64,000 nt of DNA, taken from positions 128,001 to 192,000 of the IMG/VR virus record IMGVR_UViG_3300020048_000009; one strand, written 5' to 3'. Position numbers and translations under genes: made by a program. This stretch comes from a virus. Its lineage: Duplodnaviria > Caudoviricetes. The stretch's first letter is position 1. Each line of letters begins with the position of its first letter. A model generated the notes under the pieces. That model made no database searches, was not told the origin of the DNA, and saw only the letters and a list, made by a program, of their open reading frames with translations. Below, piece after piece: positions 12,246-12,322 of this stretch.

Positions 12246-12322
12246 GGCACTATAGCTCAGTGGTTAGAGCGGGAATCTCTAAAATTCTGTCCGCATGGGT
12301 TCGAATCCCATTAGAGCCGCCA
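12246..12322 (+). tRNA. Amber suppressor tRNA, anticodon CUA
   Basis: GGCACTA/TAGAGCC acceptor stem (A4:A69 mismatch), GCTC/GAGC D-arm, GGAAT-CT CTA AA-ATTCT anticodon arm, ATGGG-TTCGAAT-CCCAT T-arm, G73, encoded CCA. Confidence 0.9.

Follow-up and report, generated by a model that had tools for sequence, protein, structure and literature searches.

A tRNA(CUA) at the end of a putative UAG-gated operon in a standard-code jumbo phage of lake metagenomes

What does a phage that uses the standard genetic code do with a tRNA that could read UAG? The suppressor tRNAs of standard-code jumbo phages have been puzzling for want of targets, and the question is raised again by a tRNA with the anticodon CUA in the viral record IMGVR_UViG_3300020048_000009. 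The window analysed here is a stretch of 64,000 nt, positions 128001-192000 of one 211,678-bp viral contig. In this case targets are visible, namely the leader peptide of the tRNA's own operon and an adjoining gene for a protein resembling peptidyl-tRNA hydrolase 2 (Pth2-like). The tRNA comes last in a unit of ~900 bp (11504-12400), referred to below as the cassette, that comprises a promoter-like motif, a leader, a gene for a small helical protein, the Pth2-fold gene, the tRNA and a terminator (Table 1). It is probable, if by no means certain, that the tRNA is a functional amber suppressor and is both the product of and the trans-acting key to this self-contained operon, which would be gated by UAG.

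Table 1. Features of the cassette, related TAG sites and other elements of the window. Positions are those of the window unless loci are named. SD, Shine-Dalgarno sequence; uORF, upstream open reading frame.
Feature	Position or locus	Strand	Details
Promoter-like motif TAATAAATAAA	11504..11514	+	27 nt upstream of leader ATG
Leader	11529..11585	+	SD AAGGAG (11529-34); uORF from ATG 11541
Long hairpin	11582..11646	+	5′ arm 11582-11598; 3′ arm 11627-11646
All-helical protein, 100 aa	11651..11953	+	Motif YRHxHIAYCxLRGRTxxQIExP
Pth2-fold gene, 98 codons	11946..12242	+	SD GGAG; in-frame TAG at codon 34 (12045-12047)
tRNA(CUA), encoded CCA	12246..12322	+	ARAGORN and Rfam; begins 3 nt past the Pth2-like stop codon
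Small hairpin and intrinsic terminator	12335..12400	+	Hairpin 12335-12350; 15-bp stem 12366-12400, then U run (terminator scan)
Pth2-like TAG in the same loop as in the window	L003, L017, L039, L042
Pth2-like TAG in YL-TAG-V	L020, L035
Pth2-like TAG at one further site	L049
Pth2-like TAG at codons 3-7 (M-x-TAG-I)	Nine loci		Most divergent branch
Copies of TAATAAATAAA	3868, 3920, 4492, 11504, 15667, 16699, 45962, 50299, 51715, 52433, 60463, 63744, 63769
RNA-repair island	6166-7236, 9810-11134, 19015-20169, 25587-26765, 28331-29521, 34800-35798		

The tRNA(CUA) and its cassette in related loci

An amber suppressor tRNA was the substance of the original prediction for this locus, and ARAGORN returned identical coordinates, strand and anticodon (cta). 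The score is not that of a pseudo-tRNA, as Rfam family RF00005 matches over positions 1-71 of 71 with 61.2 bits against a gathering threshold of 29 (E = 8e-11). The structural features that had been listed are all present on direct reading of the sequence. The acceptor stem GGCACUA/UAGAGCC has one mismatch, A4:A69, and is followed by U8 A9 and a D arm (GCUC-AGUGGUUA-GAGC) with G18G19 and a loop of 8 nt. The anticodon stem GGAAU/AUUCU is 5 bp long with the loop CU-CUA-AA, the variable region is 6 nt (GUCCGC), and the T arm is AUGGG-UUCGAAU-CCCAU with a canonical T loop (GUUCGAAUC). G73 and a genomic CCA form the 3′-end, and there is a C at position -1. Contigs of run X2, from an independent lake metagenome, differ in the tRNA by a single change (A>G at 12295), which converts a T-stem A-U pair to G.U. 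They retain A4:A69, which is therefore not an assembly error.

ARAGORN found no second tRNA in the window, as had been noted, and 24 more elsewhere in the genome, clustered at 83-93 kb (C1:83394-93081). By the same program the cluster has no Trp, Tyr or Arg(UCU) tRNA, and its calls include the odd anticodons Phe(AAA) and Ser(ACU). ARAGORN labels any CUA tRNA as tRNA-Pyl, which has a 6-bp anticodon stem, a 3-nt variable loop, a small D loop that lacks G18G19 and a single base separating the acceptor stem from the D stem. This identity is excluded by the lengths of the anticodon stem (5 bp), the variable loop (6 nt) and the D loop (8 nt, with GG), by U8 A9 and by the canonical T loop, and no tRNA-synt_2d domain (the PylRS partner) was found in the genome. 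A sensitive Rfam scan gave the tRNA alone, with no Theta/HDV-like (hepatitis delta virus) ribozyme or other known RNA beside it.

A search with the Pth2-like alignment identified 64 loci on viral contigs, and two from public assemblies bring the set of related loci to 66. The whole unit recurs in about 50 of these. Most of the 66, including loci with as little as ~40% protein identity, have a tRNA(cta) past the 3′ end of the Pth2-like gene and in the same orientation, and in about half of them the gap between the stop codon and the tRNA is 0-15 nt. When one genome per species was searched for 185,579 prokaryotic species, the Pth2-like family was found in six contigs of metagenome-assembled genomes alone. 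Four of the six bear a CUA tRNA, and two, at ~425 kb, resemble huge phages that had been mis-binned.

Compensatory changes are seen in 20 of 21 pairs among 41 cassette tRNAs. C32-U33-CUA-A37-A38 is almost invariant, the loop being CUCUAAA in most of 60; the acceptor stems, the discriminator (A/U/G/C) and the length of the variable loop (4-8 nt) vary. This context, i.e. the strong score, the compensatory pairs, the conserved C32-U33-CUA-A37-A38 and two in-frame TAG codons in the tRNA's own operon, supports its predicted role as a UAG-reading suppressor. Pairing of C(-1) with G73, which had also been proposed, looks coincidental. The -1:73 pair is Watson-Crick in 18 of 58 cassette tRNAs vs 42 of 93 other phage tRNAs, and with no such enrichment and no Thg1-like gene in the flanks of the other loci, it was rejected both as a family trait and as a tie to the Thg1-like neighbour in the window. 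Some relatives carry two CUA tRNAs, either in tandem (L051:2001-2157, L054:3822-3977 and L066:4644-4796) or apart (L058:3319-3392 and 5184-5260), and the members of a pair differ in acceptor stem and discriminator.

In-frame stops interrupt the Pth2-like genes 8 times in the body of the gene and about 9 times at codons 3-7, and all are TAG; no in-frame TGA or TAA was found in the Pth2-like genes of related loci. All suppressors of this sample are likewise CUA, and no joint change of stop codon and anticodon was seen. Examination of the helical-protein gene in 55 loci by tblastn revealed 0 in-frame stops of any kind (Fisher p = 0.008). The TAG-bearing Pth2-like genes are scattered on the maximum-likelihood tree, with 11 gains or losses, of which at least 5 are forced by well-supported branches. 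Phage-borne genes for transfer-messenger RNA (tmRNA) lie <3 kb from the cassette in five loci (L016:234-609, L029:4298-4683, L033:5051-5401, L049:1356-1751 and L079:4585-4943), and ribosome-rescue functions thus cluster with the suppressor cassette.

The leader is a further site of in-frame TAG. Its SD is separated by 6 nt from the ATG of a uORF that reads MNNDKVKC-TAG(11565-67)-VLKPP-TAA(11583-85), with 14 sense codons if the TAG is read through. In 29 of 41 related loci, a uORF that follows an SD and contains one or two TAG codons in frame was recognised, with the form M-x-TAG-(I/V)...(R/K)-x-P-P-stop. The strict form of this motif occurs 19 times in leader windows (220 nt) vs once in the other 486 kb, an enrichment of ~1000-fold (p = 1e-32), and the same scan never found it with an internal TGA or TAA. 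In the related leader peptides, the last TAG is 5-9 codons ahead of the uORF stop, which is just past a ribosome's downstream reach. The codons that come after the in-frame TAGs (Ile/Val or Gly) start with a purine, a context that favours suppression.

The 5′ arm of the long hairpin starts at the uORF TAA, and the 3′ arm pairs 4 of the 5 SD bases (AAGGA, 11638-42) of the helical-protein gene. The predicted fold of 11520-11665 has a free energy of -20.3 kcal/mol (z = -2.95), and none of 200 shuffled sequences was as stable. In the predicted structures of 14 of 23 related leaders, the partner of the SD is an arm whose start lies -6 to +12 nt from the uORF stop, and in some leaders the Pro-Pro-stop codons (CCUCC) pair directly with GGAGG. 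In run X2, the one deletion (1 nt, at 11619) is confined to the apical loop of the hairpin. Two features of a leader-peptide translational attenuator, namely an SD-led uORF adjoining the gene and a predicted SD-sequestering hairpin at the uORF stop, are present.

The motif TAATAAATAAA has 13 copies in the window where 1.6 are expected, and none of 100 shuffles reached 13. Nearly all copies are 25-35 nt upstream of start codons and in gene orientation, and the motif probably acts as a T4-late-type phage promoter. At the other end of the cassette, the fold of 12320-12412 has a predicted free energy of -24.8 kcal/mol (z = -5.6).

Products of the two protein-coding genes

The start of the Pth2-like gene overlaps the helical-protein gene by 8 nt (ATGAATAA). 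For searches with the window's protein (P0001), the TAG was read as Gln. The match to Pfam PF01981 is marginal, with 24.7 bits where the cut-off is 23, and a six-frame search gave 22.8 to 23.3 bits; PHROG 1866 (phrog_1866) matches at 3e-12. There are 911 homologues, mostly uninterrupted and 96-100 aa long, and the profile of the family matches solved Pth2 structures. A structure was modelled for P0002 (residues 12-109), a natural uninterrupted relative with 94% identity to the window's protein. This AlphaFold2 (AF2) model has a predicted local distance difference test (pLDDT) score of 92.5. All of its top 15 Foldseek matches in PDB are Pth2-family structures, the next having a probability of 0.12, and the top 14 have template modelling (TM) scores of 0.72-0.81 normalised by query. 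As modelled from this relative, the product of the TAG-interrupted gene has the Pth2 alpha/beta fold, and the TAG sits in the sole low-confidence loop of the model (residues 31-40, pLDDT 69).

Residues R9, D11, Q20, G22 and H23, within the motifs R-x-D-L and Q-x-G-H-A, are shared with Pth2. The catalytic residues of archaeal Pth2 are the Lys of a Gly-Lys segment and the Asp and Thr of D-A-G-x-T. An invariant E73-P74-D75...T81 is located where D-A-G-x-T would be expected, the register of the alignment being ambiguous there.

The interrupted gene does not appear to be dead. Run X2 differs from the window by six substitutions and the 1-nt deletion in 851 nt and retains the Pth2-like TAG. The 4 coding differences are all synonymous third-position changes, 2 of them downstream of that TAG. 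Retention of the TAG in an independent sample, the synonymous changes and the placement of the TAG in a disordered surface loop together argue against a pseudogene. A 178-nt contig of a sediment RNA library overlaps the gene with about 95% identity (9 differences), which is no proof of transcription.

The helical-protein gene immediately precedes the Pth2-like gene in 42 loci according to blastp of called open reading frames (ORFs) and in 55 of 67 according to tblastn. The motif given in Table 1 is strongly conserved in the alignment of its homologues, and no match was found in Pfam, PHROG, PDB sequences or Atlas. The AF2 model (pLDDT 90.1) consists of a helical hairpin (3-30/36-59) and a further helix (78-95). 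Its fold matches are generic helical hairpins with Z of about 7, and the tRNA-binding arm of seryl-tRNA synthetase (SerRS) is among them as a lead only. Most homologues end in ...SA, ...AA or ...CA (e.g. CISA, RNSA, NAA), like degradation-tag ends; the protein of the window ends in ...GANNE.

Proposed UAG gating and alternative explanations

Outside the cassette, the genome follows the standard code. Coverage by ORFs is 0.81 with translation table 11 and 0.84 with either TAG or TGA read as sense, and there are 6 coding-like in-frame TAG candidates vs 27 for the TGA control. TAG ends 19 of 265 long ORFs and 23 of 273 genes in a cleaner set (7-8%). Genome-wide recoding (code 15) was rejected, since the gain with TAG as sense equals that of the TGA control and there is no excess of in-frame TAG; the cassette-bearing relatives also use the standard code elsewhere. 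In a search of this genome for other read-through genes, none had homology support, the Pth2-like gene alone being supported. The candidates at a radical SAM gene (37746-39146), a helicase gene (44296-45990) and RlaP (6166-7287) were set aside on this ground, as were two pairs of ORFs without known relatives (L074 and L075), the one true homologue of the latter stopping at the TAG. In the first of these, the ORF at 37746-38033 has a weak, sub-cut-off match to DUF3127 (22.5 bits) and ends in TAG in frame with the radical SAM/SPASM gene at 38076-39146, and the arrangement looks like two genes rather than read-through.

In the favoured scheme, the leader uORF, the helical gene, the Pth2-fold gene and the tRNA would form one transcript, from which RNase P and 3′ trimming would free the tRNA. 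When no active suppressor is present, ribosomes would halt at the leader UAG (11565), 17 nt short of the hairpin that hides the SD, and the hairpin would stay shut. With charged tRNA(CUA), they would translate five more codons to Pro-Pro-UAA on the foot of the hairpin, opening it and freeing the SD. The helical protein would then be translated and, via 8-nt translational coupling, the Pth2-like gene, which would need a second read-through at codon 34. Given the two UAG codons, both proteins would be made solely when, and in proportion as, UAG suppression works. The most likely targets of both would be ester-linked suppressor products (peptidyl- or aminoacyl-tRNA), whose removal or restriction would exert feedback on read-through.

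Several observations weigh against this scheme. Of 65 cassettes, 48 have no TAG in the Pth2-like gene, and the second gate must therefore be optional. A recognisable TAG leader was not seen in 12 of 41 loci, the SD is unpaired in the minimum-free-energy fold of 9 of 23 leaders, and conservation of the Pro-Pro codons (CCUCC) may reflect pairing with the GGAGG SD rather than stalling. The A4:A69 mismatch is the only one at 4:69 among 41 related cassette tRNAs and, being unique to this lineage, may weaken the tRNA. The canonical Gly-Lys segment of Pth2 aligns with Ser-Tyr/Gln in the phage family, which makes the catalytic competence of the Pth2-like protein uncertain. Backup stops after TAG-ending genes show no bias (p = 0.66; 23 of 273 genes), and a strong suppressor would thus come at some cost. 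A gap of 3-4 kb separates the Pth2-like gene from the tRNA in Yersinia phage fHe-Yen9-04 and Pectobacterium phage CBB. Finally, no benefit to the phage is evident, the visible clients of the circuit being its own genes alone.

Some of these points would also suit an ordinary suppressor with no regulatory link, whose real job is to read TAG stops of the phage or host or to serve as amber insurance, the TAGs of the leader and the Pth2-like gene being near-neutral mutations tolerated under a co-expressed tRNA. Most cassettes lack a Pth2-like TAG and the sites fall at variable positions. CAG or AAG becomes TAG in a single step, close relatives flip between Gln and TAG, and the 23 TAG-ending phage genes would gain short tails. 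However, such tolerance should extend to all co-expressed genes, yet the helical gene has no stops in 55 loci and the genome has no other supported case. Drift would also leave unexplained the conserved and enriched M-x-TAG-(I/V)...PP-stop leader and its SD hairpin, and this explanation is considered unlikely.

Somewhat less likely again is that the cassette is the starting place of a genome-wide TAG-to-Gln recoding (code 15) at an early stage. A G+C content of 29.8%, TAG at the end of 7-8% of genes and the presence of a suppressor fit the path described by Borges et al. (10.1101/2021.08.26.457843), and the Pth2-like protein is also found in TAG-recoded Lak phages. Against this, the rest of the locus keeps the standard code both here and in the relatives, recoded phages place their in-frame stops in late structural and lysis genes, and the cassette is old and widespread (to ~40% protein identity) and recoding has not followed.

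The tRNA might instead have no suppressor role, either as a decoy or spare part of an RNA-repair and anti-defence island (e.g. bait for host anticodon nucleases) or as an inactive tRNA, and the TAG-interrupted Pth2-like gene would be a pseudogene. Its neighbours include genes for RlaP, a Thg1-like protein, Rnl1, RtcB and further RNA ligases, it carries the unique A4:A69 mismatch, and no aminoacyl-tRNA synthetase or release factor encoded by the phage was found (GlnRS/GluRS included; the record is ~84% complete by estimate). However, the Thg1-like neighbour was not found beside the other loci, it is the anticodon with its adjacent bases that the tRNA family has kept, and the independent strain keeps both the TAG and the frame downstream of it. 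The repeated TAG-only interruptions and the TAG leader make sense only if UAG is decoded, and a decoy or dead tRNA is thus improbable.

The gated operon remains the preferred reading, and the origin of its tRNA bears on the residue that would be inserted. With the anticodon masked, the tRNA body is nearest to other cassette CUA tRNAs (mean 60%, max 76%); for comparison with isotypes, the phage tRNAs gathered in this analysis were used, and identity to Gln tRNAs is at most 54%, no higher than to several other isotypes. The CU-NNA-AA loop is needed by any efficient decoder of codons that start with U (A36-A37-A38, the MiaA context) and is therefore silent on ancestry, and G73 is not a family trait because the discriminator varies. 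E. coli tRNA-Trp has A1:U72 together with G73. Derivation from tRNA-Trp (su7-like, inserting Trp or Gln), as originally suggested from the CU-CUA-AA loop (a Trp loop with C35U) and G73 and in keeping with a phage tRNA cluster that has no tRNA-Trp, is the least probable of the alternatives and is not supported, given a body at most 55% identical to phage Trp tRNAs (lower than Thr, Arg, Met and others, and far below the cassette CUA tRNAs), a G1:C72 pair, a discriminator that is not conserved in the family and no relative in which Trp aligns with the TAG.

Insertion of Gln by the tRNA(CUA) of the proposed gated operon, a part of the original prediction, is plausible, and Gln is the most likely residue from the sequence comparisons. 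The Pth2-like TAG of the window aligns with Gln in a 94-95% identical relative and in three more, and the TAG of L003 likewise; in three other lineages TAG aligns with Lys. Gln and Lys codons are one step from TAG, and these are the residues that tRNAs with a CUA anticodon most often accept in E. coli. G73, G2:C71, G10 and U35 fit the E. coli GlnRS rules and favour GlnRS over LysRS for this tRNA. The site is a variable loop and may tolerate any residue.

Genomic setting, known systems and implications

The source of the window is a 212-kb standard-code jumbo phage of lake metagenomes, and the locus is contained in aquatic and lake-water metagenomes. A protein of this genome, P0122 (C1:68780-69187), is also recorded on a 274-kb contig in another assembly, and the full phage genome may therefore be ~270 kb rather than 212 kb. 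The phage helicase has no more than 31-33% identity to the helicases of Bacillus phage G and Ralstonia phage RsoM2USA. The tRNA(CUA) sits inside a large RNA-repair island (Table 1) with genes for an RlaP nucleotidyltransferase, a P-loop kinase-like protein, a Thg1-like 3′-5′ polymerase, a T4 Rnl1-type ligase, an OB-fold RNA ligase, RtcB and a further RNA ligase, which suggests heavy investment against tRNA-cleaving host defences. Directly after the cassette terminator, the gene at 12454-12987 has a match to PHROG 1383 'virion structural protein' (8e-34) and a weak one to LemA, which would place the cassette at the edge of a structural or late region. The phage also encodes a full-length DnaJ with J domain, CXXCXGXG and C-terminal domain (16735-17838) and a 465-aa ankyrin-repeat protein (41785-43182).

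Phages that have recoded TAG (code 15; crAss-like, Lak, Agate and others) carry a suppressor tRNA(CUA) and place in-frame stops in late structural and lysis genes (10.1101/2021.08.26.457843; PMC9523058). The phage described here resembles them in having a CUA tRNA, low G+C and rare TAG stops, in probably relying on the host for charging, probably with Gln, and in a Pth2-like family that extends to Lak phages. It differs in that this genome and nearly all cassette relatives use the standard code, with in-frame TAGs confined to the tRNA's own operon. The work of Borges et al. makes no mention of a CUA tRNA paired with a Pth2-like gene, a helical protein or a TAG leader.

Among standard-code jumbo phages, Xanthomonas phage XacN1 has a CUA tRNA for which no target gene was found (PMC5852040). 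The corresponding 'orphan' tRNAs of fHe-Yen9-04 and CBB are 84-88% identical to that of the window over positions 8-63, and all three phages also encode a Pth2-like protein. Unlike in the window, the Pth2-like gene of fHe-Yen9-04 and CBB is uninterrupted and well upstream of the tRNA. No Pth2-like gene was found within 2.5 kb of the Sup-CTA tRNA in these two or in Synechococcus phage BUCT-ZZ01, from which it is absent altogether. Pth2 of jumbo phages has been assigned a proposed role in ribosome rescue with no link to a suppressor tRNA (Iyer et al. 2021; PMC7824862). The phage protein shares the modelled fold and the R-x-D-L and Q-x-G-H-A motifs with archaeal and eukaryotic Pth2 (PF01981; PDB 2zv3, 1xty and 1q7s), but is shorter (96-100 aa), is barely above the Pfam cut-off and has Ser-Tyr/Gln in place of Gly-Lys.

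The putative circuit would combine elements of known regulatory systems. Release factor 2 (RF2) autoregulates its gene prfB through an in-frame UGA and a +1 frameshift that senses RF2. As in prfB, synthesis would hinge on the reading of an in-frame stop in the operon's own message, with feedback on the decoding of that stop, but the stop would be read by a suppressor tRNA and the regulated genes are those for the Pth2-like hydrolase and the helical protein. In attenuation of ermC and cat, the downstream SD is hidden in a hairpin until a ribosome translating a short leader opens it. The cassette has in common with these (the erm case is summarised in PMC5118997) an SD-led uORF, a predicted SD-sequestering hairpin and a decisive role for the position of the leader ribosome. 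The signal, however, would be UAG read-through by a tRNA of the same operon and not a ribosome stalled by an antibiotic. Closest in logic is an engineered unnatural amino acid ('Uaa') transcriptional switch, in which a TAG in the tna/trp leader peptide makes downstream expression dependent on amber suppression (PMC6412442), so that here too translation of the leader past UAG is needed to turn on the downstream genes. That switch is man-made and uses Rho-dependent transcription termination with an orthogonal synthetase/tRNA pair, whereas the phage version is natural, appears to be translational (SD occlusion) and would use its own tRNA. In the library of papers searched, none joins 'PTH2' with 'suppressor tRNA' and no published account of such a natural switch was found, and the cassette is apparently an undescribed, conserved UAG-gated operon.

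The recurrence of the cassette in dozens of divergent phages and the accompanying statistics are hard to put down to chance. If the proposed gating is true, the operon would be nature's equivalent of the amber-codon switches that synthetic biologists build and a concrete, testable model for controlled stop-codon read-through by a phage in a standard-code host, and both the helical protein, so far unannotated, and the Pth2-like family, widespread in phages, would gain a role. Within ~900 bp, it offers compact parts for genetic-code engineering, i.e. a tRNA, a sensor leader and a possible tRNA-directed hydrolase. A bolder proposal, held only tentatively, is that the cassette is a portable natural 'suppression controller' in which a UAG-sensing leader, helical protein, Pth2-fold hydrolase and tRNA-CUA install read-through in an infected cell of standard code and measure and tune it by way of the cassette's UAG codons, with both proteins acting directly on the charged or peptidyl forms of the suppressor. 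Were this so, it would represent a new class of translational feedback circuit, would supply the functional setting that the 'orphan' suppressor tRNAs of jumbo phages have lacked, and might be a device that lets phages cross into TAG recoding.

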